A stretch of 64,000 nucleotides of DNA from the NCBI GenBank assembly GCA_964016885.1, contig OZ024741.1:240126001-240190000 (forward strand), in the 5' to 3' direction. Origin of the DNA: Eledone cirrhosa. Its lineage: Eukaryota. Below are positions 1 to 63,600 of the stretch, one piece after another; position 1 is the stretch's first letter, and each line of letters starts with the position of its first letter. The position numbers and the translations under genes were made by a program. The notes beneath the pieces were generated by a model. That model ran no database searches and was not told the origin of the DNA. It saw nothing but the letters and a program-made list of their open reading frames with translations.

Positions 1-917
1 GAATATTTACTTAAGAAAATGTTTCCACTGGTTTCATTTAACTGAAAATAACTTTTTGTTAGATCTGATGTTTTGGGGCTAAAATGGAAAGTAATTTTAC
101 CATTTTCACCAGAATCAGAATCTGTTACAGATAAAACAATGATAGGTTTAGATTTGTGATGTGTACTTTGTATGGATATATTATATAGAGGTTTAGAAAA
201 TACTGGTGGGTTGTCATTCACATCTATTATAGAGATATTTATATTTAAAATACCTTGTTTAGATGGTGAACCTCCATCTTTAGCTATGACTTGTAGTAAA
301 TATGTATCTTTGATTTCTCTATCTAATGATTCTTTTAAAACTATTTTAAGTGAAGAAATACCATCTGCTCTTTTAGAGACAGACAGAGAGAATGGTTCTC
401 CATTCTTGGATTTTAATTTATATTGTATTAATGAGTTCTGAAAACCTACATCTTTGTCTATGGCATTTGGTAGCGATCTCTTTGAACCTTTGCGATCATC
501 TTCACCAAATTGTATGTTGACATTCTTTATAGGAAACTCTGGTTGATGGTCATTGATGTCTTCTATTACTATTTTGACTTTTAATATTTTTGTAAAAGTT
601 TCCACTTTCTTTATAATAATTTTCACAGTTCTAGAACATTCTTTGTTGAAAGAACAAAGTTTCTCTGCATCCAGTGTCTGAGCAGTGTACAGTTTACCTG
701 TTTTCGTGATATTAAATAACTGTGCCACCTTTCGTTTAAATTGACTGAATGTTATCAATTGTTGGTCAGATGGTTTAACATTGTCTAAAAGTTTAGAATC
801 AGCAGCAATGTCTGCTACATATGTTCCTGGACTTCTTTCTTCTTCCACATGGTAGGTAAGGTCTATGGTCAGAACACAGTGTACCATTGATAATACAATA
901 GACAATGACAGTAACAT
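1..917 (-). CDS. Pcdh: Protocadherin A, 5' part of large exon (signal peptide, EC1, EC2, part of EC3); runs off window edge
   Basis: ATG at 917 reads MLLSLSIVLSMVHCVLTIDLTY... like the paralogs; acceptor tttcag|att with exon start 980. Not in the ORF track because no stop lies in the window. Confidence 0.93.
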   Translation of the reverse strand, partial: MLLSLSIVLSMVHCVLTIDLTYHVEEERSPGTYVADIAADSKLLDNVKPSDQQLITFSQFKRKVAQLFNITKTGKLYTAQTLDAEKLCSFNKECSRTVKIIIKKVETFTKILKVKIVIEDINDHQPEFPIKNVNIQFGEDDRKGSKRSLPNAIDKDVGFQNSLIQYKLKSKNGEPFSLSVSKRADGISSLKIVLKESLDREIKDTYLLQVIAKDGGSPSKQGILNINISIIDVNDNPPVFSKPLYNISIQSTHHKSKPIIVLSVTDSDSGENGKITFHFSPKTSDLTKSYFQLNETSGNIFLSKY

Positions 918-2002
918 ATTGTTGTAGTTGTTGTTGTGTTGGTACTGGTTAAAGATGTCCAGATATGCTGAGGATTGAATCTGAAACAGATATACATTTC
1001 ATCAATTATCATATTTTGACAGATTATAAGCAATCTATAGCATAAGAGATTTAACTTCAATACAGCAATCTCACAAAACTTTCATCCTGTTATGTCTATA
1101 TAATTTTGAAGGCTTCATTAACTATTTTATTCACTATATTTCAATGTGTTTCATAAGTGAAAAAAAATGAATTAATACATTTAGACCCCAAACATGAATG
1201 ATGTTATTTGTGGTGGAGTCAACAGTTGATATGAGAGAAAATAGCCAATTTTCTGAGTTACAAGAATTAATAGATACATTAGGAAGAGGCAATTACAGAA
1301 ACATCAAATTATGGGATCAGATTATGAAGGTTACCCATTATATAATAGACAGATTTTATCTTTTGCAAGAGAAACAATTGGGCTGGCTTGTTTATTTGAT
1401 GCTGAAGGAAAGTTTTATGAATTTAGTACCAAGCATTTGAAGTAGATAGAAGCTGTGGAAAAGAGAGACCAAGAAAGACATGAGATGAAGTTCTGAAAAA
1501 TGATCCCAAGAAACAGAGCCTCATGAAGAAGATGACCCAGGATTGTGATGACTGGCAATTTGTTGTACTAAAATAGACCCATCCACTCAGACAAGAATTG
1601 CAAAGTTAAAAGTAAATGTAATGAAAGATTGGAGACTGCATGGAGTAGAAAGCACCTATAGTGGATGAGACAACTTCTCTCAGTGGAGAAACATACTCAG
1701 TCAATGTAAGGTAGAGAGTACCTTTTGGTCCTGCTGAGGACTTGGCAATCTTTCCAGTGTTGCTAACATGATAAAAGATGCCCAGTACATCCTGCAATAT
1801 AGTTGACATCGAATGGAGATAATATAAAGTGGGGAGAACTCTTCAATCTTGCTAAATACATGACAACCTCTCTCATGCTGGGAACACAATAAAATACACC
1901 CAGCACATGCTGTAAAAGTGCTAGAGCTCATGAAACAATACATTGCATCCGATACACTCTGTAAAGTGGTAGTGATGATGCCATGATAACATTCCCCCAT
2001 CA

Positions 2003-3032
2003 TCTATATATATAAAATTGAAGATGTCTGTCTGTGAGTGTGTGAGTTCGAATCCCTAAAACTCGAGAACCACCCAACCGACTGTTTTAAAACTTTACAC
2101 ATGTAATACTTGTTTCGGGGAGTGTTCTGAGCAAACTAAATTTCAAATTTTCTAGGCCCTAGGGACTGCATTAGACGATTTAGCGATCTCTCTCTATAAT
2201 TCTTAGTTTTTCTCTTTTTAGATAGATACATACATATAACGTCGCGCCCTTATAATTGTTTCTACTTTTAGCACAAGGCAAGCAATTATCCCAGTGCATT
2301 ACTGGCACTTTATTTTATCGACCCCGTAAGGATGAAAGGCAAAGTTAACCTCGGCGGGATTTGAACTCAGATCATAAAGGGAGGTAACTCTATGCTTCAA
2401 AGCATGGCGTCCGACCCTTACCGATACTGCCAATCCACCATGCCCTTATAATATCTGTCTGTATTACGTCACTTCCCTGAGAATGTCTGTCTGTGAATTT
2501 GAATTCCTAAAACTCGAGAAATACCCAACCGACTTTTTTCAAACTTTACATGTGTATTACTTATATTTCAGGGAGTGTTATGCACATACAAAATTCAACT
2601 TTTTTATCTCCTACATTAGGTGAAAAACTGCGTTTTAAAACATTTTTACGGGTTTTTTGTGGCGTTACGTCAGACCGATTTCCCGTCTCTTCTTCATACC
2701 GTAAGCAAAGAAAATCCAACTTTCTTATGGCCTAGGGCCTGCATTAGGTGAAAAACTTCATTTTTTCAGCTTCTTAGGGCATTTTGGAGGCGTTACATCT
2801 AGCTGATTTTCCCGAAATTTCAAGGCATATTATGCACATAAAAAAAATTCATTTTCTTGATCCCATTTTTCCTGCTTCATCGAGGAAAATCTTAAAGATT
2901 ATCCAGCCATCAGAGTATTCGGTTTATTTTCTTTACATATTGTCCAGGCATGCAGTTTTTCCACGATTAGGTCTGTTGGCGGCCCGTGTTCCAAAATACA
3001 TTATCCCGTGCAACGCCGGGTACCACTGCTAG
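2003..3032 (+). mobile_element. Non-autonomous Helitron-like element with nested SINE
   Basis: A|TCTATATATATAAAA 5' end; 3' GC-rich hairpin cccgtgcaacgccggg then CTAG|T; internal ~110-bp duplication (about 2026 and 2484). Confidence 0.75.
2255..2445 (-). mobile_element. tRNA-derived SINE, near full length
   Basis: Reverse complement of the 24433-24614 element; A-box and B-box like motifs; flanked by direct repeat gcccttataat (2246, 2442). Confidence 0.85.
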
Positions 3033-6492: not shown

Positions 6493-6930
6493 CTCTTTAA
6501 TATTTATATCATTGGTTATGCAGTGAGAATAGAAAGATGTATTGTTATAGAAAGCTCCATTGTAAGTGCTGCTGTAATGGTGTGTGACAATGGCTGTATG
6601 TTGATGGAGTAGTGTAGCACGTCAGGCAGATAGTCTGCTGCTAGGATAGGGTTGTGTGTGTTATTGGAGTTCTATGCTTGTGACAGTACCTCTCTCTAAT
6701 ATTGTATATGTATTTATCCTTAAAGATGATGTTTGTTTACTATTATCAATAACTATTTACATATATATAGATATATATGTTTAAATAGCTACAATATTCT
6801 ATAGTTAAACATAACATAAATGTTTAGTTTAATAACATCAGTAATGTGAATATTTCTCTTTGTTAGTGATTTCTATCTATGTTTTAGTGAGAATCTGATT
6901 GGTCAAATGACCTAAACCGAAGACCAATGA
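6493..6930 (-). promoter_or_regulatory. Conserved promoter / non-coding exon 1 cassette of gene A
   Basis: Donor GAG|GTAAGT at 6493; ATTGG 6898 and CCAAT 6924; CACGTCA; repeated once per gene unit. TSS not determinable. Confidence 0.75.
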
Positions 6931-7395: not shown

Positions 7396-7472
7396 TTACA
7401 CATGTTTCACTGGTGTTTCTTCACTGGAATCCTTTGATGTAGATGTATCATTATTTTTGTATATATTTTGAT
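7396..7472 (-). CDS. Pcdh: Protocadherin B last coding exon (DQNIYKNNDTSTSKDSSEETPVKHV*)
   Basis: tttcag acceptor, phase matches upstream exon, TAA at 7396-7398, conserved in 7 copies. Confidence 0.85.
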
Positions 7473-7700
7473 CTGAAATTTAAACATGAAACACATTTTA
7501 CATCATTATGGACCATTTTGTTATTTAGTAAACAATATGAAAAGAAATAAAAAAGATATAATTCTGAGTTTGTTATCAGACAGAAGAGAAACATTCCTAT
7601 TTAATGGGTGAATGGTTAATAAATATCTATAAACAGTTGTTAATAACTAAATAAATGTGAGATGATATCAAAATATAATATAAGTAAAGTAGATATTAAC

Positions 7701-7866
7701 CTGATATTCCTGGTAATTCTTCATAATGTTTCATATCACCTTCATTCAATACACGTCTACTACTTCTCTTAGATGACATTGTATCTGATGTATAGTTACA
7801 AACTATAGGAGGATTATCTTCCACAGCATCATCACTTGATGTCACTACAACAGGTTGACAGTATTT
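7701..7866 (-). CDS. Pcdh: Protocadherin B cytoplasmic exon 3 (166 nt, KYCQP...YEELPGIS)
   Basis: Pyrimidine tract plus caacag acceptor, CAG|GTTAAT donor, in frame. Confidence 0.88.
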
Positions 7867-8049
7867 CTGTTGACAAATAAACCAAGAGAAATGTGAGGAG
7901 ACATCAAACAATCCAAGTCACAATAAACATGTAGTTTACAATTAAATATTGGACTATATTATTGAAGATAAAACATCGTTAAAATAATCTTATTGTTTAT
8001 CTTTTACATATAAAGTAAAGATAGAAAATATTTTAATCTTTTCACTTAC

Positions 8050-10425
8050 TGGGGTAGGTTTTGGTAAAGTTCTTGACTGAACTGAAGCTTCATATTTATT
8101 CTGTAGCTGACCTTCTGAATAACATTCACTCTTTGATCTCTCAGAATATATATTTCTTTTTATCATCTCTTCTGTATTCCTTGACATAGCAACAGGATTG
8201 TTAGACTGATACAACAATTGTTTCATCTCTGTTCTACCTTGGTATGCTGTAGTCTTTGTTGTAGTAGCTGTGTTATCTCTGTGTTTAATACATTTCATTA
8301 TACACAGTGTTATAGAAACAACAATAGCCACTGATACTATTACTGCTGATGATACAATGATAATAACCCATGTCATATGGACTCTACCTGAAGATTGTAT
8401 AGGTACACTTTTCAACATTGGTGATGTCTCATTACTAACAGCCAATACCAAAGTCACACTAGTTGTTGATGACTGAACTGGACTACCACTGTCTTTTACA
8501 ACAAACTTTAGTTCATAACTTCCAGCATCATTTAGATAAACTTGTCTGGAGAAGGATAAAGCACCACTGTGTGAGTTCATAGTAAACAACTGTTTATTAT
8601 TTCCTTGTATGATTTCATATGTGAGGAAAGCATTGTTTCCACTGTCACCATCAGATGCTCTGAAAACTGTGATGTCACTTTTACTCTGGGGATGGTAGTG
8701 GACATTTAGGGTATAAGGGTCAACACTAGGAAAGGTGAAATATGGAATATTGTCATTTTGATCTAAAATCTCAACAACAACGTTGGCCGTGTCATTCAGA
8801 GATGGACTTCCATTATCTTTGACAAAAACTTCAAATTTATACACATCTTGTTTCTCTCTGTCTAATGACATGGTGGCTGAAATAAAGCCATAACTTGTGA
8901 TCAGAAATGGTAGATTTGATTTTTCTTTATGTATCAGAGAATATGTGAGTTGTCCAGCAGATCCAAGGTCAGGGTCAGTGGCATTGACAAAACCAATAGG
9001 GAAGTCTTTATCTTTGTTTTCATAGGTCAGGAATTGGAATGTATCTTTGGTAAACTGTGGTTGTACATCATTGATATCAGTCACTTGGATAGAGAGAGTT
9101 TTAACACTTTTAAGAGGTGGTAATCCTTTATCTTGACATGAAACAGGAATGTTATAGTGTCCTTGTGTTTCTCTGTCTACTGGTTTGTTTAGAACTATTT
9201 TATATTCTTTAGATCCCATTGACTGTAGTTTGAATGTATCATGTTTGATATCACAGCTGACCTCTCCATTTTGTCCAACATCATTGTCAGTGACCATCAC
9301 ATAAGCAATGAAACTCCCAGCTTTGATATCTTCAGAAATGGTAGCTGTGTTGTCATTGATAGCAGAAACATAATCTATATCAATAGATGGAGGGTTGTTG
9401 TGTTGGTTGATAACATTTACCAGAACTGTTGCTATAGAATTAAGAGGGGGGTTACCCCCATCTCTAGCTTCTATAAACAATTCATAGGTTTTCCTTTTTC
9501 CTAAACTTGAATATTTATTTAAGAAAATGTTTCCACTAGTTTCATTTAATTGGAAATTGCTCTTAGCAAGATCTGATGTCTTTGGACTGAAATGGAAAGT
9601 AATTTTACCATTTTCACCAGAATCAGAATCTGTTACAGATAAAACAATGATAGGTTTAGATTTGTGATGTGTACTTTGAATAGATATATTATATAGAGGT
9701 TTAGAAAATACTGGTGGGTTGTCATTCACATCTATTATAGAGATATTTATATTTAAAATACCTTGTTTTGATGGTGAACCTCCATCTTTAGCTATGACTT
9801 GTAGTATATATGTATCTTTGATTTCTCTGTCTAATGATTCTTTTAAAACTATTCTAAGAGAAGAAATACCATCAGCTCTTTTAGAGACAGACAGGGAGAA
9901 TGGTTCGCCATTCTCGGATTTTAATTTATATTGTATTAATGAGTTCTGAAAACCTACATCTTTGTCTATGGCATTAGGTATTGACCTTTTGGCACTTTTA
10001 CCAATATCCTCATCAAACTGTATATTAACATTCTTCAGAGGAAACTCAGGTATATGATCATTGATGTCTTCTATTACTATTTTAATTTTTAATATTTTAG
10101 TAACACTTCTTCCTTTGTTAACAACAACCTTCACAGTTCTAGAACATTCTTTGTTGAATGTACAGAGCTTCTCTGCATCCAGTGTCTGAGCAGTGTACAG
10201 TTTACCTGTTTTCGTGATATTAAATAACTGTGCCACCTTTCGTTTAAATTGACTGAATGTTATCAATTGTTGGTCAGATGGTTTAACATTGTCTAAAAGT
10301 TTAGAATCAGCAGCAATGTCTGCTACATATGTTCCTGGACTTCTCTCTTCTTCCACATGGTAGGTAAGGTCTATGGTCAGAACACAGTGGACCATTGATA
10401 ATACAATAGACAATGACAGTAACAT
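8050..10425 (-). CDS. Pcdh: Protocadherin B large exon (SP, 6 EC, TM, proximal tail; 792 codons)
   Basis: DxNDxxP, LDRE and AxDxG cadherin motifs, EC1 Cys-X5-Cys, hydrophobic TM; donor CCA|GTAAGT at 8050; 5'UTR acceptor at 10486. Confidence 0.97.
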
Positions 10426-14243: not shown

Positions 14244-14684
14244 CTCTTTAATAATTATATCATTGGTTATTCAGTGAGAATAGAAAGATGTATTGTTGTA
14301 GAAAGCTCCATTGTAAGTGCTGCTGTAATGGTGTGTGACAATGGCTGTATGTTGATGGAGTAGTGTAGCACGTCAGGCAGATAGTCTGCTGCTAGGATAG
14401 GGTTGTGTGTGTTATTGAAGTTGTATGTTCGTGGCAGTACATCTCTCTAATAATATTGTGGATGTATTTATCCATAATTATGATGTTTGTTTACTGTTAT
14501 CAATAACTATTTACATATTTATATAGATATATATTTAAATAGCTACAATATTCTATAGTTAAACATAACATAAATGTTTGGTTAAATAACATCAGTAATG
14601 TGAATGTTTCTCTTTGTTAGTGATTTCTGTCTATGTTTTGGTGAGAATCTGATTGGTTGAATGACCTAAACAGAAGACCAATGA
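14244..14684 (-). promoter_or_regulatory. Conserved promoter / non-coding exon 1 cassette of gene B
   Basis: Donor at 14244; ATTGG 14652 and CCAAT 14678. Confidence 0.75.
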
Positions 14685-15247: not shown

Positions 15248-15324
15248 TTATACATGTTTCACTGGTGTTTCTTCACTGGAAGCTTTTGATGTAGATGTAT
15301 CATTATTTTTATATATATTTTGAT
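15248..15324 (-). CDS. Pcdh: Protocadherin C last coding exon
   Basis: ttccag acceptor; ...SKASSEETPVKHV*. Confidence 0.85.
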
Positions 15325-15752
15325 CTGGAATTTAGGAAAAAAATGACATTTTACAAAATTAGAGGAGGGAACATTTCCTTTATAAATAATGTTCAAAGAC
15401 AGGAAAGGCATAATGATTAAATACTCAAAGTAGTGGATGAAAAAATAAAAAAACTAAATTTCTATACACAAATAGTATTATATAGTAAAATATCATTAGA
15501 AAAAGAAAAGTACTTCTACATTCAAGATGTGATTAAAGACTTTTGTGGGCATCCTTTTGGTATTAAATTATGTAATGAAAAGAGAGAAAAAAGATATTTT
15601 TATAAAATGTACATATTGTAGGATGTGAAGGATCAGATGAGTAAAAATAAAACAAAATGAATTCTTATTTAATGACAGATGTGTTAAATATAGTTGTTAA
15701 AAATTCAATGTTGATGATATTGAAATATAATATAACCAATATAGTTATTAAC

Positions 15753-15918
15753 CTGATATTCCTGGTATTTCTTCATAATGTTTCATATCACCTTCATTCA
15801 ATACACGTCTACTACTTCTCTTAGATGACATTGTATCTGATGTATAGTTACAAACTATAGGAGGATTATCTTCCACAGCATCATCACTTGATGTCACCAC
15901 AACAGGTTGACAATATTT
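15753..15918 (-). CDS. Pcdh: Protocadherin C cytoplasmic exon 3
   Basis: 166 nt, AG/GT bounded, paralogous to 7701-7866. Confidence 0.88.
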
Positions 15919-16101
15919 CTGTTGACAAACAAACCAAGAGAAATGTGAGGAGACATCAAACAATCATAGTTACAATAAACATGTAGTTTACAATTTAATA
16001 TTGGACTATATTATTGAAGATAAAACATTGTTAAAATAATCTTATTGTTTATCTTTTACATATAAAGTGAAGATAGAAAATATTTTAATCTTTTCACTTA
16101 C

Positions 16102-18477
16102 TGGGGTAGGTTTTGGTAAAGTTCTTGACTGAACTGAAGCTTCATATTTATTCTGTAGCTGACCTTCTGAATAACATTCACTCTTTGATCTCTCAGAATA
16201 TATATTTCTTTTTATCATCTCTTCTGTATTCCTTGACATAGCAACAGGATTGTTAGACTGATACAACAATTGTTTCATCTCTGTTCTACCTTGGTATGCT
16301 GTAGTCTTTGTTGTAGTAGCTGTGTTATCTCTGTGTTTAATACATTTCATTATACACAGTGTTATAGAAACAACAATAGCCACTGATACTATTACTGCTG
16401 ATGATACAATGATAATAACCCATGTCATATGGACTCTACCTGAAGATTGTAAAGGTACACTTTTCAACATTGGTGATGTCTCATTACTAACAGCCAATAC
16501 CAAAGTCACACTAGTTGTTGATGACTGAACTGGACTACCACTGTCTTTTACAACAAATTTTAGTTCATAACTTCCAGCATCATTTAGATAAACTTGTCTG
16601 GAGAATGATAAAGCACCACTGTGTGAGTTCATAGTAAACAACTGTTTATTATTTCCTTGTATGATTTCATATGTGAGGAAAGCATTGTTTCCACTGTCAC
16701 CATCAGATGCTCTCAAAACTGTGATGTCACTTTTACTCTGGGGATGGTAGTGGACATTTAGGGTGTAAGGGTTAACACTAGGAAAGGTGAAATAGGGAAC
16801 ATTGTCATTTTGATCTAAAATCTCAACAACAACATTAGCTGTGTCATTTAGAGATGGACTTCCATTATCTTTGACAAAAACTTCAAATTTATACACATCT
16901 TGTTTCTCTCTGTCTAATGACATGGTGGCTGAAATAAAGCCATAACTTGTGATCAGAAATGGTAGATTTGATTTTTCTTTATGTATCAGAGAATATGTGA
17001 GTTGTCCAGCAGATCCAAGGTCAGGGTCAGTGGCATTGACAAAACCAATAGGGAAGTCTTTATCTTTGTTTTCATAGGTCAGGAATTGGAATGTATCTTT
17101 GGTAAACTGTGGTTGTACATCATTGATATCAGTCACTTGGATAGAGAGAGTTTTAACACTTTTAAGAGGTGGTAATCCTTTATCTTGACATGAGACAGGA
17201 ATGTTATAGTGTCCTTGTGTTTCTCTGTCTACTGGTTTATTTAGAACTATTTTATATTCTTTAGATCCCATTGACTGTAGTTTGAATGTATCATGTTTGA
17301 TATCACAGCTGATCTCTCCATTTTGTCCAACATCATTGTCAGTGACCATCACATAAGCAATGAAACTACCAACTTTGATCTTCTCAGAAATGGTAGCTGT
17401 GTGGTCATTGATAGCAGAAACATAATCTATATCAATAGATGGAGGGTTGTTGGGTTGATTGACAATATTTATCAAAACTGTTGCTATGGAACTAAAGGGA
17501 GGGTTGCCTCCATCTCTAGCCTCGATAAACAGTTCATAGGTTTTCTTTTTTCCTAAACTTGAATATTTATTTAAGAAAATATTTCCACTGGTTTCATTTA
17601 ATTGGAAATAGCGTTTTGCAAGATCTGATGTCTTTGGACTGAAATGGAAAGTAATTTTACCATTTTCACCAAAATCAGCATCTGTTACAGATAAAATAAT
17701 GATAGGTTTAGATTTGTGATGTGTACTTTGTATGGATATATTGAATAGAGGTTTAGAAAATACTGGTGGGTTGTCATTCACATCTATTATAGAGATATTT
17801 ATATTTAAAATACCTTCTTTTGCTGGTGAACCTCCATCTTTAGCTATGACCTGGAGTAAATATGTATCTTTGATTTCTCTGTCTAATGATTCTTTCAAAA
17901 TTATGTTAAGAGAAGAAATACCATCTGCTCTTTTAGCAACTGACAGTAAGAATGGTTCTCCATTCTTGGATTTTAATTTATATTGTATTAATGAGTTCTG
18001 AAAACCTACATCTTTGTCTATGGCATTTGGTACTGATTGTTTGGCACCTTTACCAATATTTTCATATAATTGTATGTTGACATTCTTTGTAGGAAACTCA
18101 GGTTGATGGTCATTGATGTCTTCTATTACTATTTTGATTTTTAATATCTTTGTAACACTTATTCCTTTATTGACAACAACTTTCACTGTTCTAGAACATT
18201 CTTTGTTGAATGTACAGAGCTTCTCTGCATCCAGTGTCTGAGCAGTGTACAGTTTACCTGTTTTGGTGATATTAAATAACTGTGCCACCTTTCGTTTAAA
18301 TTGACTGAATGTTATCAATTGTTGGTCAGATGGTTGAACATTGTCTAAAAGTTTAGAATCAGCAGCAATGTCTGCTACATATGTTCCTGGACTTCTCTCT
18401 TCTTCCACATGGTAGGTAAGGTCTATGGTTAGAACACAGTGGACCATTGATATTACAATAGACAATAGGAGTAACAT
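16102..18477 (-). CDS. Pcdh: Protocadherin C large exon
   Basis: Intact ORF with 6 cadherin repeats and TM; donor at 16102; acceptor at 18535. Confidence 0.97.
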
Positions 18478-23858: not shown

Positions 23859-23935
23859 TTACACATGTTTCACTGGTGTTTCTTCACTGGAATCCTTTGA
23901 TGTAGATGTATCATTATTTTTGTATATATTTTGAT
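23859..23935 (-). CDS. Pcdh: Protocadherin D last coding exon
   Basis: AG acceptor, ...EETPVKHV* with TAA at 23859. Confidence 0.85.
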
Positions 23936-24160
23936 CTGGAATTTAAACACAAAACTCATTTTACATCATTATGGACCATTCTGTTATTTAGTAAACAATA
24001 TGAAAAGAAAGAAAAAAGATATAATTCTGAGTTTGTTATCAGAAAGAGAAACATTCCTATTTAATGGGTGAATTGTTAATAAATATCTATAAACAGTTGT
24101 TAATAACTGAATAAATGTGAGATGATATCAAAATATAATATAAGCAAAGTAGATGTTAAC

Positions 24161-24326
24161 CTGATATTCCTGGTATTTCTTCATAATGTTTCATATCACC
24201 TTCATTCAATACACGTCTACTACTTCTCTTAGATGACATTGTATCTGATGTATAGTTACAAACTATAGGAGGATTATCTTCCACAGCATCATCACTTGAT
24301 GTCACCACAACAGGTTGACAATATTT
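24161..24326 (-). CDS. Pcdh: Protocadherin D cytoplasmic exon 3
   Basis: 166 nt, AG/GT bounded. Confidence 0.88.
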
Positions 24327-24432
24327 CTGTTGACAAACAAACCAAGAGAAATGTGAGGAGATATCAAACAATCCTAGTTACAATAAACATGTAGTTTACA
24401 ATTAAATATTAGACTATATTATTGAAGATAAA

Positions 24433-24614
24433 GGGCGGTGAATTGGCAGTATCGGTAGAGTCTCGGACATGCTTTCCAGCATAGTTACGTCCCTTTATGA
24501 TCTGAGTTCAAATCCCGCCGAGGTTAACTTTGCCTTTCATCCATACGGGGTCGATAAAATAAAGTACCAGTAATGTACTGGGTATTTGCTGGCCTTGTGC
24601 CAAAAGTAGAAACA
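24433..24614 (+). mobile_element. Full-length tRNA-derived SINE with 15-bp target-site duplication, in gene D intron 2
   Basis: A box tggcagtatcgg, B box gagttcaaatccc; TSD attattgaagataaa at 24418-24432 and 24615-24629; absent from the paralogous introns. Confidence 0.92.
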
Positions 24615-24689
24615 ATTATTGAAGATAAAACATTGTATATCTTTTACATATAAAGTGAAGAAAGAAAATATTTTAATCTTTTCACTTAC

Positions 24690-32261: not shown

Positions 32262-32338
32262 TTATACATGTTTTACTGGTGTTTCTTCACTGGAATCTTT
32301 TGATGTAGATGTATCATTGTTTTTATATATATTTTGAT
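32262..32338 (-). CDS. Pcdh: Protocadherin E last coding exon
   Basis: ttgcag acceptor, ...PVKHV*. Confidence 0.85.
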
Positions 32339-32576
32339 CTGCAATTTAGGAAAAAATGATATTTTACAAAATTAAAGCAGGGAACATTCCCATATTAAAT
32401 AGTGTATAAAGACAGAAAAAGCAGAGTGATCAAATGCTTAAAGTAGTGGACAGGTAAATAGATACATTCTTCACTTTCTTATACAGTATTTTATATAGTT
32501 AAATATTGTTAGAAATATATGTGCATCTGAATGTGAGATTATATCTAAGTACAATATAGCAAAAGTAGTTGTTAAC

Positions 32577-32742
32577 CTGATATTCCTGGTAATTCTTCAT
32601 AATGTTTCATATCACCTTCATTCAATACACGTCTACTACTTCTCTTAGATGACATTGTATCTGATGTATAGTTACAAACTATAGGAGGATTATCTTCCAC
32701 AGCATCATCACTGGATGTCACCACAACAGGTTGACAATACTT
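32577..32742 (-). CDS. Pcdh: Protocadherin E cytoplasmic exon 3
   Basis: 166 nt, AG/GT bounded. Confidence 0.88.
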
Positions 32743-33124
32743 CTGTTGACAAACAAACCAAGAGAAATGTGAGGAGACATCAAACAATCCTAGTTACAAT
32801 AAACATGTAGTTTACAATTTAATATTGGACTATATTATTGAAGATAAAGCATTTTAAAAATAATCTTATTGTTTATAAGTATGTATACGTACATACGTAT
32901 ATGTATACAGACGTACAGTAGTATGTATATACATACATACATGCACACATATATATATATGGGTTTACTGAACATTTATTATAATGTTCGGTTTGTTTGT
33001 AAACAAACAGCCCGAATTAAGGCATACAGTGTTCGGCAACCATCGTTGCCCTTTTGTTCAACACTTAATGTTTATCTTTTGCATATAGAGTGAAGATAGA
33101 AAATATGTTAATCTTTTCACTTAC

Positions 33125-42579: not shown

Positions 42580-42656
42580 TTATACATGTTTCACTGGTGT
42601 TTCTTCACCGGAATCTTTTGATGTAGATGTATCATTGTTTTTATATATATTTTGAT
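42580..42656 (-). CDS. Pcdh: Protocadherin F last coding exon
   Basis: AG acceptor, ...SKDSGEETPVKHV*. Confidence 0.85.
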
Positions 42657-42689
42657 CTGGAATGTAATAGAAAATACATTATAATAAAT

Positions 42690-42930
42690 AATAATGAAAA
42701 TGATTGTGTAGTGTGCTCAGGTGCACTACAACTCATCAAAGGTGCATGTATAGTACATAAAATTATGTACAAGTGTCAGGAACAGTGTATAAGTCTTGAG
42801 ATACATGCGTGCATGAGTATGGAGGAGGAATATCAGGTGTAGTGTTGGTGAATTTCGGGAAGTATGGAAGTTTTGAAGGATGCAGTGTCCCGACAGCTAA
42901 CAACTGATGCTATTAGTTTGTTCCATGACA
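42690..42930 (-). mobile_element. Old 3' fragment of the CR1-type LINE family, gene F intron 3
   Basis: Matches 36450-36650 (gtgctcaggtgcactacaac...gacagctaacaactgatgc); same insertion present in gene G. Confidence 0.85.
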
Positions 42931-43085
42931 TGATTAGATGAATATATTGAAAACAAAGAATCAATTGAGCAATTGAGTAAAATATTTCTTATTCACACAA
43001 TCTTATATATATTGTTAGATGTAGATGTTAAAAAATATTGATGTTGAAGATATCAAAGTAAAATATAGCCAATGTAATTATTAAC

Positions 43086-43251
43086 CTGATATTCCTGGTA
43101 ATTCTTCATAATGTTTCATATCACCTTCATTCAATACACGTCTACTACTTCTCTTAGATGACATTGTATCTGATGTATAGTTACAAACTATAGGAGGATT
43201 ATCTTCCACAGCATCATCACTTGATGTCACCACAACAGGTTGACAATATTT
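43086..43251 (-). CDS. Pcdh: Protocadherin F cytoplasmic exon 3
   Basis: 166 nt, AG/GT bounded. Confidence 0.88.
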
Positions 43252-43434
43252 CTGTTGACAAACAAACCAAGAGAAATGTGAGGAGACATCAAACAATCCT
43301 AGTTACAATAAACATGTAGTTTACAATTTAATATTGGACTATATTATTGAAGATAAAATATTGTTAAAATAATCTTATTGTATATCTTTTACATATAGAG
43401 TGAAGATAGAAAATATTTTAATCTTTTCACTTAC

Positions 43435-45807
43435 TGGGGTAGGTTTTGGTAAAGTTCTTGACTGAACTGAAGCTTCATATTTATTCTGTAGCTGACCTTC
43501 TGAATAACATTCACTCTTTGATCTCTCAGAATATATATTTCTTTTTATCATCTCTTCTGTATTCCTTGACATAGCAACAGGATTGTTAGACTGATACAAC
43601 AATTGTTTCATCTCTGTTCTACCTTGGTATGCTGTAGTCTTTGTTGTAGTAGCTGTGTTATCTCTGTGTTTAATACATTTCATTATACACAGTGTTATAG
43701 AAACAACAATAGCCACTGATACTATTACTGCTGATGATACAATGATAATAACCCATGTCATATGGACTCTACCTGAAGATTGTATAGGTACACTTTTCAA
43801 CATTGGTGATGTCTCATTACTAACAGCCAATACCAAAGTCACACTAGTTGTTGATGACTGAACTGGACTACCACTGTCTTTTACAACAAACTTTAGTTCA
43901 TAACTTCCAGCATCATTTAGATAAACTTGTCTGGAGAATGATAAAGCACCACTGTGTGAGTTCATAGTAAACAACTGTTTATTATTTCCTTGTATGATTC
44001 CATATGTAAGGAAAGCATTGTTTCCACTGTCACCATCAGATGCTCTCAAAACTGTGATGTCACTCTTACTCTGGGGATGGTAGTGGACATTTAGGGTGTA
44101 AGGGTTAACACTAGGAAAAGTGAAATATGGAACATTGTCATTTTGATCTAAAATCTCAACAACAACATTAGCTGTGTCATTCAGAGATGGACTTCCATTA
44201 TCTTTGACAAAAACCTCAAATTTATACACATCTTGTTTCTCTCTGTCTAATGACATGGTGGCTGAAATAAAGCCATAACTGGTGATCAGAAATGGTAGAT
44301 TTGATTTTTCTTTATGTATCAGAGAATATGTGAGTTGTCCAGCAGATCCAAGGTCGGGGTCAGTGGCATTGACAAAACCAATAGGGAAGTCTTTATCTTT
44401 GTTTTCATAGGTCAGGAATTGGAATGTATCTTTGGTAAATTGTGGTTGTACATCATTAATATCAGTCACTTGGATAGAGAGAGTTTTAACACTTTTAAGA
44501 GGAGGTAATCCTTTATCTTGACATGAGACAGGAATGTTATAGTGTCCTTGTGTTTCTCTGTCTACTGGTTTGTTTAGAACTATTTTATATTCTTTAGATC
44601 CCATTGACTGTAGTTTGAATGTATCATGTTTGATATCACAGCTGACCTCTCCATTCTGTCCAACATCATTGTCAGTGACCATCACATAAGCAATGAAACT
44701 ACCAACTTTGATATTTTCAGAAATGGTAGCTGTGTTGTCATTGATAGCAGAAACATAATCTATATCAATAGATGGGGGGTTGTTGTGTTGGTTGATAACA
44801 TTTATCAGAACTGTTGCAATGGAACTGAATGGAGGGTTACCGCCGTCTCTGGCTTCTATAAATAATTCAAAAGAAGTTTTTTCATTTAAGCTAGAAATTC
44901 TGGACAAAAATATTTTGCCATCTTTTTTATTTAATTCAAAATATTTCTTTGCTTGATCAGAAGTTTTGGGACTGAAATGGAAAGTAATTTTACTGTTGGG
45001 TCCTAAATCTTTGTCTGTCACTGACAAATTAAGAATAGGTTTGGTTATCTCATGAGTGGTTCTAATGGAAATATTATAAAGTGGTTTTGAAAATACAGGT
45101 GGATTATCATTCGCATCTTCCACAATAATCAGAACATTTAACACACACTGTTTAGATGGGGAGCCTCCATCTTTCGCAATAACTTCCACATTGTATTTCT
45201 CTTTTATCTCTCTATCTAATTTATCTTTTAAAAGAATATTTAATGAGGAAATACCATCAGCTCTTTTAGAAACTGACAGCGAAAATGAATCAATAGATTT
45301 TTTAAGTTTATACTCAATAAAAGAATTTTGGTAACTAATGTCATTGTCTATGGCATTTGGGATTGACTTTTTCATTCCTTTTCCATCTCCTTCTCCAAAA
45401 TGTAGAGTGATTTGTTTTTCTGGAAACTCTGGTTCATGGTCGTTAATGTCTTCTATTACTATTTTGATTTTTATGATTTTTGTAAAAGTTTCCACTTTCT
45501 TCATTATAATTTTCACAGTTCTAGAACATTCTTTGTTGAATGTACAGAGCTTCTCTGCATCCAGTGTCTGAGCAGTGTACAGTTTACCTGTTTTGGTGAT
45601 ATTAAATAACTGTGCCACCTTTCGTTTAAATTGACTGAATGTTATCAATTGTTGGTCAGATGGTTTAACATTGTCTAAAAGTTTAGAATCAGCAGCAATG
45701 TCTGCTACATATGTTCCTGGACTTCTCTCTTCTTCCACATGGTAGGTAAGGTCTATGGTCAGAACACAGTGGACCATTGATAATACAATAGACAATGGCA
45801 GTAACAT
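43435..45807 (-). CDS. Pcdh: Protocadherin F large exon
   Basis: Intact ORF; donor at 43435; acceptor at 45893. Confidence 0.97.
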
Positions 45808-51682: not shown

Positions 51683-51759
51683 TTATACATGTTTCACTGG
51701 TGTTTCTTCACTGGAATCTTTTGATGTAGATGTATCATTGTTTTTATATATATTTTGAT
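51683..51759 (-). CDS. Pcdh: Protocadherin G last coding exon
   Basis: AG acceptor, ...PVKHV*. Confidence 0.85.
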
Positions 51760-51794
51760 CTGGAATGTAATACAAAAGACATTATAACAATAAT

Positions 51795-51985
51795 AATTGT
51801 TTCTACTTTTGGCACAAGGCCAGCAATTAACCAGTGCATTACTGGTACTTTATTTTATCGACCCCATAAGGATGAAAGGCAAAGTTAACCTCGGCGGGAT
51901 TTGAACTCAGTCCGTAAAGGGACGGAACTCTATGCTGGAAAGCATGGCGTCTGACCCTCTACCGATACTGCCAATCCACCGCACT
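51795..51985 (-). mobile_element. Full-length tRNA-derived SINE in gene G intron 3
   Basis: Reverse complement of 24433-24614; absent at the matching site in gene F (about 42690). Confidence 0.9.
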
Positions 51986-52225
51986 ATAATGAAAATTATT
52001 GAGTACCGTGCTCAGGTGCACTACAACGCAACAAAGGTGCATGTATAGTACATAAACTAATGTACAACTGTCAGGAAAGTGAACAGTGTATGACTCTTGA
52101 TATACACAGTTACATGCATGCATGAGTATGGAGGAGGAATATCGGGTGTAGTGTTGGCGAATTTCGGGAAGAATGGCAGTGTCCCGACAGCTAACAACTG
52201 ATGCTAGTAGTTTATTCCATGACAT
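51986..52225 (-). mobile_element. Old 3' fragment of CR1-type LINE, gene G intron 3
   Basis: Paralog of 42690-42930 with the same junction sequence. Confidence 0.85.
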
Positions 52226-52379
52226 CATTAGATGAATATATTGAAAACAAAGAATCAATTAGGCACATGAGTAAAATATTTCTTATTCACACAATCTTAT
52301 ATATATTGTTAGATGTAGATGTTAAAAAATATTGATGTTGAAGATATCAAAGTAAAATATAACCAAAGCAGTTATTAAC

Positions 52380-52545
52380 CTGATATTCCTGGTAATTCTT
52401 CATAATGTTTCATATCACCTTCGTTCAATACACGTCTACTACTTCTCTTAGATGACATTGTATCTGATGTATAGTTACAAACTATAGGAGGATTATCTTC
52501 CACAGCATCATCACTTGATGTCACCACAACAGGTTGACAGTATTT
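52380..52545 (-). CDS. Pcdh: Protocadherin G cytoplasmic exon 3
   Basis: 166 nt, AG/GT bounded; not in ORF track only because no upstream start codon. Confidence 0.88.
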
Positions 52546-52728
52546 CTGTTGACAAACAAACCAAAAGAAATGTGAGGAGACATGAAACTAACCTAGTTAC
52601 AATAAACATGTAGTTTACAATTTAATATTGGACTATATTATTGAAGATAAAACATTGTTAAAATAATCTTATTGTTTATCTTTTATGTTTAAAGTAAAGA
52701 TAGAAAATATTTTAATCTTTTCACTTAC

Positions 52729-55098
52729 TGGGGTAGGTTTTGGTAAAGTTCTTGACTGAACTGAAGCTTCATATTTATTCTGTAGCTGACCTTCTGAATA
52801 ACATTCACTCTTTGATCTCTCAGAATATATATTTCTTTTTATCATCTCTTCTGTATTCCTTGACATAGCACCAGGATTGTTAGACTGATACAACAATTGT
52901 TTCATCTCTGTTCTACCTTGGTATGCTGTAGTCTTTGTTGTAGTAGCTGTGTTATCTCTGTGTTTAATACATTTCATTATACACAGTGTTATAGAAACAA
53001 CAATAGCCACTGATACTATTACTGCTGATGATACAATGATAATAACCCATGTCATATGGACTCTACCTGAAGATTGTATAGGTACACTTTTTAACATTGG
53101 TGATGTCTCATTACTAACAGCCAATACCAAAGTCACACTAGTTGTTGATGACTGAACTGGACTACCACTGTCTTTTACAACAAACTTTAGTTCATAACTT
53201 CCAGCATCATTTAGATAAACTTGTCTGGAGAATGATAAAGCACCACTGTGTGAGTTCATAGTAAACAACTGTTTATTATTTCCTTGTATGATTTCATATG
53301 TGAGGAAAGCATTGTTTCCACTGTCACCATCAGATGCTCTCAAAACTGTGATGTCACTCTTACTCTGGGGATGGTAGTGGACATTTAGGGTGTAAGGGTT
53401 AACACTGGGAAAGGTGAAATATGGAATATTGTCATTTTGATCTAAAATCTCAACAACAACATTAGCTGTGTCATTCAGAGATGGACTTCCATTATCTTTG
53501 ACAAAAACTTCAAATTTATACACATCTTGTTTCTCTCTGTCTAATGACATGGTGGCTGAAATAAAGCCATAACTGGTGATCAGAAATGGTAGATTTGATT
53601 TTTCTTTATGAATCAGAGAATATGTGAGTTGTCCAGCAGATCGAAGGTCGGGGTCAGTGGCATTGACAAAACCAATAGGGAAGTCTTTATCTTTGTTTTC
53701 ATAGGTCAGGAATTGGAATGTATCTTTGGTAAACTGTGGTTGTACATCATTGATATCAGTCACTTGGATAGAGAGAGTTTTAACACTTTTAAGAGGAGGT
53801 AATCCTTTATCTTGACAGGAGACAGGAATGTTATAGTGTCCTTGTGTTTCTCTGTCTACTGGTTTATTTAGAACTATTTTATATTCTTTAGATCCCATTG
53901 AATGTAGTTTGAATGTATCATGTTTGATATCACAGCTGACCTCTCCATTTTGTCCAACATCATTGTCAGTGACCATCACATAAGCAATGAAACTACCAAC
54001 TTTGATCTTCTCAGAAATGGTAGCTGTGTTGTCATTGATAGCAGAAACATAATCTATATCAATAGATGGGGGGTTGTTGTGTTGGTTGATAACATTTACT
54101 AAAACTGTTGCTATGGAATTGAGTGGAGGGTTACCTCCATCTCTGGCTTCTATAAATAATTCAAAAGATGTTTTCTCATTTAAACTAGAAATTCTGGACA
54201 AAAATATTTTACCATCTTTTTTATTTAATTCAAAATATTTCTTTGCTTGATCAGAAGTTTTGGGGCTGAAATAGAAAGTAATTTTACTGTTGGCTCCTAA
54301 ATCTTTGTCTGTTACTGACAAATTAAGAATAGGTTTGGTTATCTCATGAGTGGTTCTAATGGAAATATTATATAGTGGTTTTGAAAATACAGGTGGATTA
54401 TCATTCGCATCTTCCACAATAATCAGAACATTTAACACACACTGTTTAGATGGGGAGCCTCCATCTTTAGCAATAACTTCTAAATTGTATTTCTCTGCTA
54501 TCTCTCTATCTAATTTATCTTTTAAAACAATCTTTAATGAGGAAATACCATCAGCTCTTTTAGAAACTGACAGCGAAAATGAATCAATAGATTTTTTAAG
54601 TTTATACTCAATAAAAGAATTTTGGTAACTAATGTCATTGTCTATCGCATTTGGGATTGACTTTTTCATTCCTTTTCCATCTCCTTCTCCAAATTGTAGA
54701 GTAATTTGTTTTTCTGGAAACTCTGGTTCATGGTCGTTAATGTCTTCTATTACTATTTTGATTTTTATGATTTTTGTAAAAGTTTCCACTTTCTTCATTA
54801 TAATTTTCACAGTTCTAGAACATTCTTTGTTGAATGTACAGAGCTTCTCTGCATCGAGTGTCTGAGCAGTGTACAGTTTACCTGTTTCAGTGATATTAAA
54901 TAACTGTGCCACCTTTCGTTTAAATTGACTGAATGTTATCAATTGTTGGTCAGATGGTTTAACATTGTCTAAAAGTTTAGAATCAGCAGCAATGTCTGCT
55001 ACATATGTTCCTGGACTTCTCTCTTCTTCCACATGGTAGGTAAGGTCTATGGTCAGAACACAGTGGACCATTGATAATACAATAGACGACAGTAACAT
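52729..55098 (-). CDS. Pcdh: Protocadherin G large exon
   Basis: Intact ORF of 790 codons; donor at 52729; acceptor at 55158. Confidence 0.97.
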
Positions 55099-56140: not shown

Positions 56141-56159
56141 AATGATAGGGACCCCAGTC

Positions 56160-56305
56160 TTATTATCTCATTTCTACAGCTGAGTAAACTGGAGCAATCT
56201 GAAATAAAGTGTCTGGCTCAAAGAAACAACACATCACCCAGTCTGAGAATTGAACTCACAACCTTTCGATTGCAAAGCCAATGCTCTAACCACTAAGCCA
56301 TATGC
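56160..56305 (-). mobile_element. tRNA-derived SINE of a second family (CORE-like), decayed
   Basis: Minus strand tggcttagtggttagagc...gagttcaattc head followed by an aagtgtct.gctcaa.g.aacaac core-like segment. Confidence 0.6.
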
Positions 56306-60486: not shown

Positions 60487-60563
60487 TTATACATGTTTCA
60501 CTGGTGTTTCTTCACTGGAATCCTTTGATGTAGATGTATCGTTGTTTTTATATATATTTTGAT
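60487..60563 (-). CDS. Pcdh: Protocadherin H last coding exon
   Basis: AG acceptor, ...PVKHV*. Confidence 0.85.
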
Positions 60564-60784
60564 CTGGAATTTAGATAGAAAATAATATCTTACACAATTA
60601 TAAAGGAGACCATTCTATTATTAAATTAGGCAAGCATTCGTAATGACCATATGTATATAAACATGACAGATTCCCTAATAATCAGATGGGTCAATGAAAG
60701 ATTCACTCTTAACCACAGAGAGTTTTATAAATTTGCTAAATATCAATATAAGGAAAAATGTACATTTTAGATGTTATCAAAATA

Positions 60785-60860
60785 TAATTGTTTCTACTTT
60801 TGCCACAAGGTCAGCACTTACCTTAGTGAATTACTGGTACCTTATTTTATCAACCCCGCA
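60785..60860 (-). mobile_element. SINE 3' fragment in gene H intron 3
   Basis: aattgtttctacttt...ttactggtac.ttattttatcaacccc. Confidence 0.7.
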
Positions 60861-60890
60861 AAATATAATATAGCCAAAGTAGATATTAAC

Positions 60891-61056
60891 CTGATATTCC
60901 TGGTAATTCTTCATAATGTTTCATATCACCTTCATTCAATACACGTCTACTACTTCTCTTAGATGACATTGTATCTGATGTATAGTTACAAACTATAGGA
61001 GGATTATCTTCCACAGCATCATCACTGGATGTCACCACAACAGGTTGACAATATTT
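60891..61056 (-). CDS. Pcdh: Protocadherin H cytoplasmic exon 3
   Basis: 166 nt, AG/GT bounded. Confidence 0.88.
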
Positions 61057-61230
61057 CTGTTGACAAACAAACCAAGAGAAATGTGAGTAGACATCAAACA
61101 ATCCTAGTTACAATAAACATGTAGTTTACAATTTAATATTGGACTATATTATTGAAGATAAAGCATTGTTAAAATAATCTTATAGTTTATGTATAAAGTA
61201 AAGAGAAAATATTTTAATCTTTTCACTTAC

Positions 61231-63600
61231 TGGGGTAGGTTTTGGTAAAGTTCTTGACTGAACTGAAGCTTCATATTTATTCTGTAGCTGACCTTCTGAA
61301 TAACATTCACTCTTTGATCTCTCAGAATATATATTTCTTTTTATCATCTCTTCTGTATTCCTTGACATAGCAACAGGATTGTTAGACTGATACAACAATT
61401 GTTTCATCTCTGTTCTACCTTGGTATGCTGTAGTCTTTGTTGTAGTAGCTGTGTTATCTCTGTGTTTAATACATTTCATTATACACAGTGTTATAGAAAC
61501 AACAATAGCCACTGATACTATTACTGCTGATGATACAATGATAATAACCCATGTCATATGGACTCTACCTGAAGATTGTATAGGTACACTTTTCAACATT
61601 GGTGATGTCTCATTACTAACAGCCAATACCAAAGTCACACTAGTTGTTGATGACTGAACTGGACTACCACTGTCTTTTACAACAAACTTTAGTTCATAAC
61701 TTCCAGCATCATTTAGATAAACTTGTCTGGAGAATGATAAAGCACCACTGTGTGAGTTCATAGTAAACAACTGTTTATTATTTCCTTGTATGATTCCATA
61801 TGTGAGGAAAGCATTGTTTCCACTGTCACCATCAGATGCTCTTAAAACTGTGATGTCACTTTTACTCTGGGGATGGTAGTGGACATTTAGGGTGTAAGGG
61901 TCAACACTAGGAAAGGTGAAATATGGAACATTGTCATTTTGATCTAAAATCTCAACAACAACATTGGCTGTGTCATTCAGAGATGGACTTCCATTATCTT
62001 TGACAAAAACCTCAAATTTATACACATCTTGTTTCTCTCTGTCTAATGACATGGTGGCTGAAATAAAGCCATAACTGGTGATCAGAAATGGTAGATTTGA
62101 TTTTTCTTTATGAATCAGAGAATATGTGAGTTGTCCAGCAGATCGAAGGTCAGGGTCAGTGGCATTGACAAAACCAATAGGGAAGTCTTTATCTTTGTTT
62201 TCATAGGTCAGGAATTGGAATGTATCTTTGGTAAACTGTGGTTGTACATCATTGATATCAGTCACTTGGATAGAGAGAGTTTTAACACTTTTAAGAGGTG
62301 GTAATCCTTTATCTTGACAGGAGACAGGAATGTTATAGTGTCCTTGTGTTTCTCTGTCTACTGGTTTGTTTAGAACTATTTTATATTCTTTAGATCCCAT
62401 TGAATGTAGTTTGAATGTATCATGTTTGATATCACAGCTGACCTCTCCATTTTGTCCAACATCATTGTCAGTGACCATCACATAAGCAATGAAACTACCA
62501 ACTTTGATCTTCTCAGAAATGGTAGCTGTGTTGTCATTGATAGCAGAAACATAATCTATATCAATAGATGGAGGGTTGTTGTGTTGGTTGATAACATTTA
62601 CTAAAACTGTTGCTATGGAATTGAGTGGAGGGTTACCTCCATCTCTGGCTTCTATAAATAATTCAAAAGATGTTTTCTCATTTAAACTAGAAATTCTCGA
62701 CAAAAATATTTTGCCATCTTTTTTATTTAATTCAAAATATTTCTTTGCTTGATCAGATGTTTTGGGACTGAAATGGAAAGTAATTTTACTGTTAGGTCCT
62801 AAATCTTTGTCTGTTACTGACAAATTAAGAATAGGTTTGGTTTTGTCATGAGTGGTTCTAATGGAAATATTATAAAGTGGTTTTGAAAATACAGGTGGAT
62901 TATCATTCTCATCTTCCACAATAATCAGAACATTTAACACACACTGTTTAGATGGGGAGCCTCCATCTTTAGCAATAACTTCTAAATTGTATTTCTCTGC
63001 TATCTCTCTATCTAATTTATCTTTTAAAACAATCTTTAATGAGGAAATACCATCAGCTCTTTTAGAAACTGACAAAGAAAATGCATCATTGGATTTTTTA
63101 AGTTTATATTCAATAAAAGAATTTTGGTAACTAATGTCATTGTCTATGGCATTTGGAATTGACTTTTTCCTTCCTTTTCCATCTCCTTCCCTAAATTGTA
63201 AAGTGATTTGTTTTTCTGGAAACTCTGGTTCATGGTCGTTAATGTCTTCTATTACTATTTTGATTTTTATGATTTTTGTAAAAGTTTCCACTTTCTTCAT
63301 TATAATTTTCACAGTTCTGGAACATTCTTTGTTGAATGTACAGAGATTTTCTGCATCCAGTGTCTGAGCAGTGTACAGTTTACCTGTTTTAGTGATATTA
63401 AATAACTGTGCCACCTTTCGTTTAAATTGGCTGAATGTTATCAATTGTTGGTCAGATGGTTTAACATTGTCTAAAAGTTTAGAATCAGCAGCAATGTCTG
63501 CTACATATGTTCCTGGACTTCTCTCTTCTTCCACATGGTAGGTAAGGTCTATGGTCAGAACACAGTGGACCATTGATAATACAATAGACGACAGTAACAT
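61231..63600 (-). CDS. Pcdh: Protocadherin H large exon
   Basis: Intact ORF; donor at 61231; acceptor at 63660. Confidence 0.97.

Follow-up and report, generated by a model that had tools for sequence, protein, structure and literature searches.

An octopod protocadherin array with variable EC2-EC3 repeats in a probably conversion-homogenised frame: a candidate adhesion code

Protocadherins of coleoid cephalopods lie in sub-arrays on one chromosome, as head-to-tail arrays of whole, multi-exon genes with six cadherin repeats (PMC9068888; PMC9795677; PMC6339937). Albertin 2022 (PMC9068888) described full-gene duplication in these sub-arrays and suggested "homogenization through gene conversion"; the available text of that paper makes no claim on protocadherin function, and the adhesion specificity of cephalopod protocadherins is called unknown in PMC6339937. 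Two expansions of the family were dated, and a recent octopod burst was put at 8-14 million years ago (Ma) from whole-gene distances (PMC9795677). The present analysis concerns one such sub-array in Eledone cirrhosa, approached through a window of 64,000 nucleotides (contig OZ024741.1, positions 240126001-240190000, of a 3.0 Gb genome). Its genes belong to the coleoid clustered protocadherins, whose arrays, along with a hint of conversion, were already in print (PMC9068888); new relative to the literature, as far as the available texts of the sub-array papers go (PMC9068888; PMC9795677; PMC6339937), are the divergence of each extracellular cadherin (EC) repeat, EC2-EC3 variants that span lineages, coupling between distant residues, and an altered EC3-EC4 linker.

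In vertebrate clustered protocadherins, synonymous divergence (dS) is highest in EC2/EC3 and lowest in EC5/EC6 (PMC4978886), and the coleoid and vertebrate expansions are called independent (PMC9068888; PMC4978886). The delta-2 protocadherins (Pcdh8, 10, 17, 18, 19), which gave the best sequence and fold matches to the octopod proteins (6vg1, 6vg4, 6vfr, 6vft), bind through an antiparallel EC1-4 "forearm handshake" (PMC5115871); unlike the octopod array, they are single dispersed genes with no conversion-built repertoire. A shared ancestral binding geometry has been argued for vertebrate clustered and delta protocadherins (PMC5001838). Outside the cadherins, the red/green opsins also have a divergence peak inside converted duplicates, a local pattern described as the signature of selection to stay different (PMC3924837); the octopod array differs from them in having about 30 copies, which are reshuffled internally and coupled over long range. 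The literature searches brought up no study of cephalopod protocadherins at domain level or of their binding, although Albertin 2015, Wang and Ragsdale 2017 and supplements could hold part of this, and the available text of PMC10084454 has nothing on octopus protocadherin binding.

The window holds seven complete protocadherin genes on the minus strand and the first 305 codons of an eighth (gene A, completed from the adjoining stretch L020 for the divergence values). These eight belong to a sub-array of 30 genes at 239.95-240.23 Mb, in all of which the large exon is open; complete multi-exon genes stand head to tail inside a larger cluster, and most of the 150 protocadherin matches scored genome-wide are on the same contig. 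The genes begin with a non-coding exon 1, which a long intron 1 separates from a coding exon 2 of 790-792 codons; exons 3 and 4 follow, and in 7/7 complete window genes these are the gene's own, with no shared constant exon. The large exon encodes the signal peptide, EC1-EC6, the transmembrane segment (TM) and the start of the tail; domain matches (Cadherin_2 and five Cadherin stretches) give six repeats with a protocadherin-type EC1, a TM and a short tail. Two subfamilies are told apart by 34 diagnostic residues at positions 157-314. Subfamily II comprises 8 of the 30 genes, scattered among those of subfamily I, and sequence divergence shows no trend with distance along the array.

Divergence among the 30 genes changes sharply along the large exon. 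Synonymous differences (uncorrected, per block) are 0.086 at residues 17-98, reach 0.419 at 99-124, 0.417 in EC2 and 0.375 in EC3, and then drop to 0.164 at 345-367, 0.045 at 368-451, 0.049 in EC5, 0.030 in EC6, 0.009 in the TM and 0.021 in the tail; non-synonymous differences follow the same shape. For the eight window genes the corresponding values are 0.065, 0.34, 0.44, 0.45, 0.12, 0.054 (rest of EC4), 0.059, 0.039, 0.014 and 0.005. In 24 of the 30 genes the remaining parts were also compared, exon 4 lying outside the fetched stretch in up to seven. Intron 2 (0.044), exon 3 (0.013) and exon 4 (median 0.051, a rough value, as are those of the untranslated regions (UTRs)) are close between genes. 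Intron 1 past about +500 and intron 3 past +46 stand at 0.27-0.30 against 0.28-0.31 for shuffled sequence (intron 3 from +46 to +130, 0.295 against 0.301), and the 3' UTRs are diverged beside near-identical coding tails. Intron 2 has been lengthened by insertions from 183 to 357-1100 bases in 7 of the 30 genes (g01, g03, g05, g06, g15, g22 and g23), which could serve to date conversion events. Within the constant region the distance between subfamilies (0.0131) equals or falls below that within subfamily I (0.0137), and constant and variable pairwise distances are uncorrelated (rho 0.05).

A first-pass annotation, made from the letters of the window, had described residues ~1-98 and everything from EC4 to the C-terminus as nearly identical, introns 1 and 3 as mostly diverged, and the stretch from the end of EC1 to EC3 as variable, with EC2 and EC3 switching together between the subfamilies. 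The intron distances and the synonymous profile agree with this, and so do the diagnostic residues, with two amendments: the first 23 residues of EC4 (345-367) vary, and block 99-112 at the end of EC1 switches independently of the subfamilies. Neither EC1 nor EC4 is wholly constant: both contain a small variable patch, and these patches are coupled to each other.

An assembly artefact is an unlikely source of this pattern, because no two constant regions are identical (0.55-2.8% apart), because read depth in run X8, which covers introns, is 366-425 on constant-region contigs against 15-16 on unique intron contigs, consistent with about 25 real copies, and because the same pattern occurs in proteins from records of three other species.

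The 30 proteins were set against 26 units from Octopus vulgaris/sinensis and 22 proteins from Argonauta, a set with 15 of the 24 members of the largest protein cluster (after two fused models had been divided and a fragment from O. bimaculoides removed). Among the matches listed, 119 of 120 are named Octopus or Argonauta proteins, the nearest being from Octopus vulgaris (91%) and Argonauta hians (88%). Residues 368-792 contain 24, 31 and 41 near-fixed differences between lineages, and no polymorphism there is shared; among residues 99-367 no difference is fixed, and 77, 74 and 82 polymorphic sites are shared. The constant-region tree has three lineage clades (support 96-100; 2 label changes), and a quick IQ-TREE tree of the variable region needs 13 label changes for the three lineages and unites all three within subfamily II (support 98-100). 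Several EC2 cassettes and both subfamilies are common to the E. cirrhosa array, Argonauta and Octopus.

The variable part is in turn a mosaic built up from short tracts of conversion, a point on which the first-pass annotation needs correction. In 94 of 435 gene pairs an identical run in this part is longer than in all 200 permutations, and site incompatibility is lower at short range (p 0.002). A test resembling the pairwise homoplasy index gave p 0.002 for the whole exon and for the variable region, and was not significant within EC1a, EC4a or the constant region alone, despite 41% incompatible site pairs in the constant region. All 30 genes have distinct EC2 sequences, and the closest paralogs differ at 9-13 residues in 99-367. 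The G+C content at third codon positions (GC3) is mostly slightly higher in the converted domains (0.25-0.34 in EC5/EC6 against 0.16-0.25 in EC2/EC3; the TM of this array is an exception), which is compatible with biased conversion.

The same EC2/EC3 peak occurs in three other sub-arrays sampled from search matches (37, 38 and 11 genes; one broken gene was skipped), with synonymous differences of 0.21-0.48 in EC2/EC3 and 0.044-0.056 in EC5/EC6, and each of the four sub-arrays has its own constant part. Between sub-array B and the window's array the synonymous difference drops to 0.19 in EC4 (368-451) from 0.40-0.65 elsewhere, suggesting an older exchange of EC4. Upstream of the array, L027 and L028 (239.91-239.93 Mb) share its EC4-EC6 (nucleotide difference 1.3-4.3%) and have divergent EC1-EC3 (17-31%); a conversion boundary lies between L028 and L029, and a gene with a divergent EC1 like theirs is also present in O. 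vulgaris (P0009) and Argonauta (P0012). Two probable pseudogenes were seen at other sub-arrays: L091 in sub-array C, with its large frame cut to 421 amino acids, and L032, adjoining sub-array B, without most of EC3.

Domain-restricted gene conversion among whole genes is, on this sequence evidence, the almost certain cause of the pattern. The first-pass annotation had proposed it and named sliding-window synonymous divergence and per-domain trees among its checks; the non-uniform profile, the homogenised intron 2, the discordant trees (constant part lineage-specific, variable part lineage-spanning), the short tracts and the repetition in other sub-arrays all speak for the proposal. Conversion from an RNA template was considered as the main route and discarded, since homogenisation extends to intron 2 and the promoter and the introns are retained.

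Residues at the two edges of the variable region are coupled over long distances in the window's array and in sub-array C1, in a scan that covered these two and sub-arrays B and C2. In subfamily I, genes with a KKV-type EC1 hairpin (residues 100-108) carry Y358 and G361 in 12 of 14 cases across lineages (7/8 in the E. cirrhosa array, 4/5 in Octopus, 1/1 in Argonauta), and those with an NKG-type hairpin in 0 of 40, two duplicates and one gapped model having been dropped. Mean linkage (r2) drops to 0.02-0.13 within EC2-EC3 and climbs back to 0.82 at 358-361, and 36 of 80 pairs between the EC1 patch (100-108) and the EC4 patch (356-368) have z>5. Residue 106 predicts residue 366 in 30/30 genes of the array in a charge-matched manner (E with K/N 16/16, R with D 6/6, T with D 5/5, V/I with K 3/3). 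The top long-range pairs of sub-array C1, whose EC4 is about 50% identical, again join 105/106 with 366/368 by opposite charges (E106 with A366/K368 in 9/9, K/N106 with D366/E368 in 14/14).

A second pair joins EC2 to EC3. N191 is accompanied by F328 in 12/12 genes and any other residue at 191 in 1/18, in both subfamilies; the pair ranks first of 2746 distant pairs and holds in 6/6 independent pairs (median p 0.03). In Argonauta N191 goes with F/I328 (12/12) and K191 with L328 (10/10), 22/22 in all, and in Octopus the relation is looser (4/5 and 19/20, respectively). These coupled pairs persist though the DNA between them is shuffled. Between the EC2 A-B loop and EC3 no systematic coupling was found (0/700 pairs with z>5); one pair with z=137.7 in that scan was disregarded, its mutual information being tiny.

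A model of EC1-4 (predicted local-distance score, pLDDT, 87; predicted template-modelling score, pTM, 0.58) matches vertebrate protocadherin EC1-4 structures (TM-score about 0.6-0.78). It places residues 100-108 in the EC1 F-G hairpin, 125-152 in EC2 strand A, A-B loop and strand B, 191 in EC2 strand E, 328 at the end of the EC3 F-G loop, and 356-366 in EC4 strand A and the A-B loop. Trans-binding motifs shared among protocadherins include elements that bear the coupled sites (PMC5115871). In vertebrate protocadherins the beta1a loop of EC4 touches the beta6-beta7 loop of EC1 (PMC5001838), EC1:EC4 also sets specificity through charge pairs (PMC5106212), a feature that the octopod pairs resemble, and 84-338 and 123-300 in gammaB3 numbering are top intermolecular coevolving pairs (bioRxiv 493106). 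By alignment, residue 106 corresponds to gammaB4 84 and 148 to gammaB4 123, which are the EC1 and EC2 members of those pairs, and residue 328 to alpha7 L301, listed as a mutated position in PMC8901172. An intermolecular antiparallel contact is the simplest reading of the EC1-EC4 coupling, because EC1 and EC4 are far apart in one chain and the EC2-EC3 linker retains its calcium motifs. A homodimer prediction for EC1-4 made without an alignment scored 0.09 against a mark of 0.32 and is evidence neither way.

The EC3-EC4 linker, read by the calcium-site rules of cadherins, is degenerate. In the commonest variants of 121 genes, in all four sub-arrays and in most homologues, the strand-A Glu, DRE and DxNDN are replaced, so that DxD and the top Asp alone are kept and 3/5 canonical calcium-binding elements are gone; the first Asp is lost in 111 of 114 aligned homologues, 3/114 starting with D. 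This linker likely binds at most one calcium and may flex, judging from its sequence, and a flexible joint at this place is possibly typical of these octopod protocadherins.

At the other end of the genes, distances over the 420 bases that precede the exon-1 donor are 0.014-0.087 (up to 27 of the 30 genes, three lacking this part), and in intron 1 they have risen to shuffle level by +500. In the window, the stretch of promoter and exon 1 of gene B (Table 1) and six equivalent ones are as homogenised as the coding tail. They contain CCAAT and TGACGT, the latter of which we take to be a CRE-like motif; CTCF-like and CGCT patterns had no match in 27 promoter/exon-1 stretches of at most 490 bases, some of them shorter. 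The splice join of exon 1 to exon 2 (about 14244 to 10438) is present in contigs of runs X11 and X2, and intron 2 (183 nt in gene B) is skipped in one contig of run X1; the types of these runs are guessed or unknown, and X1 and X2 are from other organisms. A run search found no run on record as RNA among those matching the sub-array.

These observations can be joined in one scheme. Promoters, most of EC1, and the sequence from residue 368 to exon 3 are very likely kept near-identical within species by ongoing conversion, and selection likely protects the end of EC1 to the start of EC4 as a putative isoform-matching surface between cells. Tracts that split up a matched pair, or that erase the difference between two isoforms, would be purged, leaving the divergence peak and the long-range coupling. 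With EC4 lying three repeats from EC1 in the same chain, the coupled residues would touch across the trans dimer, and different isoforms would then prefer themselves. The shared membrane-proximal domains and tail would supply one cis and signalling module for all isoforms, which the vertebrate alpha/gamma clusters partly gain from shared exons. With near-identical promoters the genes would be regulatory equals, so that any choice specific to a cell would be either stochastic or directed from a distance.

A selected, antiparallel, isoform-matching adhesion surface that spans the end of EC1 through the start of EC4 is, in our judgement, probable; the long-range coupling of residues supports it indirectly. 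The wider proposal can be put forward tentatively: an octopod neuronal self/non-self barcode built independently, in which conversion would provide a "virtual constant exon" and equal promoters, tracts would shuffle ancient cassettes, the lock-and-key pairs 106-366/368 and 191-328 would be kept, a calcium-poor EC3-EC4 hinge would join the repeats, and each neuron would use a random subset. Such a barcode would require homophilic binding specific to each isoform and a stochastic choice that differs from cell to cell. A role in neuronal self-recognition holds only if isoform self-preference and regulatory equality both hold.

Several results weigh against the scheme. The ratio of non-synonymous to synonymous divergence (dN/dS) is 0.13-0.40 in 12/12 blocks, and local-tree parsimony found 8 codons in 99-367 with a ratio above 1, none significant. 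Raw coupling counts are inflated by shared ancestry, and the EC1-EC4 coupling amounts to 2 independent pairs on supported branches, too few for significance. In sub-arrays B and C2 no EC1-EC4 pair is among the top 25, and acidic 106 occurs with D366 in 3 of 37 sub-array B genes and in one Octopus protein. The partners are off-register from those of vertebrates, 84-338 mapping to 106-377 and 123-300 to 148-333 (gammaB3 numbering on the gammaB4 alignment), so the contact would be similar, not identical. With a degenerate EC3-EC4 linker the straight four-repeat geometry may not hold. Finally, some O. vulgaris PCDHs are ubiquitous or cell-type specific, not stochastic (PMC9712504).

The last point agrees with the rival that fares best, a real recognition code used deterministically (cell-type or target matching, subfamily sorting) or heterophilically and not as a random single-neuron barcode, which we consider on the unlikely side. 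O. vulgaris neurons express about 21 PCDHs on average, cell-type markers and ubiquitous genes among them (PMC9712504), and the small distance between the closest paralogs, the unmatched CTCF-like and CGCT patterns and the degenerate linker point the same way. Proximal promoters as similar as those over the 420 bases leave little room for gene-specific control near the start, however, partner matching within a gene is a prediction of homophilic binding, and mouse beta6/beta8 are strictly homophilic at 92% identity (PMC8901172).

It is rather improbable that the variable region is a neutral escape from conversion, EC2-EC3 having diverged early, below the identity needed for pairing, with the couplings as ancestral haplotypes and interchangeable isoforms kept for dosage. 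Divergence or insertions do stop conversion (PMC3924837), which would explain introns 1 and 3, the low dN/dS and the few independent EC1-EC4 contrasts fit, and near-identical promoters are what co-expression would predict. Yet the variable region still converts in short tracts and no two EC2 are alike, the small EC4 patch persists next to fully homogenised sequence, and the same domains carry the peak in all four sub-arrays; moreover, the coupling skips intervening DNA, matches charges, reappears in a separate sub-array at identical positions and, for 191-328, crosses subfamilies. Recent tandem duplication with fast EC2-EC3 evolution, or an assembly or polishing artefact, without conversion, is scarcely credible: the burst dated to 8-14 Ma (PMC9795677) would suit it, but the discordant trees, the subfamilies and cassettes shared with Argonauta and Octopus beside lineage-specific constant parts, the shuffle-level introns 1 and 3 and the read depth contradict it. 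Because the sub-array and both subfamilies are shared with Argonauta, the whole-gene burst dates themselves may be biased young by conversion.

The coordinates of the window's genes are given in Table 1. Repeats were also observed. Intron 1 of gene E holds a long interspersed (LINE-type) element (window 36559-38795) with an open 601-amino-acid reverse-transcriptase frame (PF00078), in which bases 37719-38155 are repeated inverted at 38359-38795 with 99.5% identity, indicating a recent insertion or local rearrangement. A 27-base minisatellite lies in intron 1 of genes B and D (window 12557-13035 and 28713-29019), and a long repetitive stretch upstream of g11 (L012 6114-7808), with open frames on both strands, may be an expansion of it.

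Table 1. Protocadherin features of the window (window positions; residue numbers refer to the encoded protein)
Feature	Subfamily	Position	Strand	Details
Gene A (g19)	I	1..917	-	ATG at 917; first 305 codons of the large exon, remainder before the window
Gene A promoter and non-coding exon 1		6493..6910	-	donor 6493; 5' limit approximate
Gene B (g20)	I	7396..10425	-	exon 2 10425-8050, exon 3 7866-7701, exon 4 7472-7396; 872 aa predicted
Gene B variable region (residues 99-344)		9394..10131	-	
Gene B EC3-EC4 linker example		9394-9408		
Gene B coupled codon starts		10110, 9855, 9444, 9330	-	residues 106, 191, 328 and 366 (the last just outside the variable region)
Gene B promoter and non-coding exon 1, homogenised		14244..14664	-	donor 14244; 5' limit approximate
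Gene C (g21), coding exons	I	15248..18477	-	variable region 17446-18183; exon-1 donor 23051
Gene D (g22), coding exons	I	23859..27065	-	variable region 26034-26771; exon-1 donor 30217
Gene E (g23), coding exons	II	32262..35497	-	variable region 34469-35203; exon-1 donor 41697
Gene F (g24), coding exons	II	42580..45807	-	variable region 44779-45513; exon-1 donor 50814
Gene G (g25), coding exons	II	51683..55098	-	variable region 54073-54807; exon-1 donor 59132
Gene H (g26), coding exons	II	60487..63600	-	variable region 62575-63309; exon 1 beyond the window

Compared with the vertebrate clusters, the octopod genes have the same EC2/EC3 peak of dS and low EC5/EC6, one large ectodomain exon and the EC1-4 fold; conversion spares EC2-EC3 in both, with short tracts still inside it here, and variable and coupled sites fall on elements of the trans interface. 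The octopod array differs in its independent expansion, its own tail exons homogenised by conversion, its non-coding first exon, the absence of a match to a CTCF/CSE-like (conserved sequence element) pattern in the promoter stretches, and the degenerate EC3-EC4 linker. The closest vertebrate layout is that of Pcdh-beta, which consists of whole genes without a shared constant exon. By analogy, the octopod genes may work like vertebrate clustered protocadherins, although they are not members of that family. The term "convergent", used in the first-pass annotation, can be applied to the expansion and to the pattern of conversion. For the geometry of binding, inheritance from ancestral protocadherins is more likely, which would make this a case of parallel evolution on a shared scaffold.

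On the question of how large-brained cephalopods give their neurons distinct surface identities, naming specific residues for swapping makes homophilic specificity directly testable, and the diverged 3' UTRs behind near-identical coding tails imply that existing 3'-end single-cell data could separate the paralogs.

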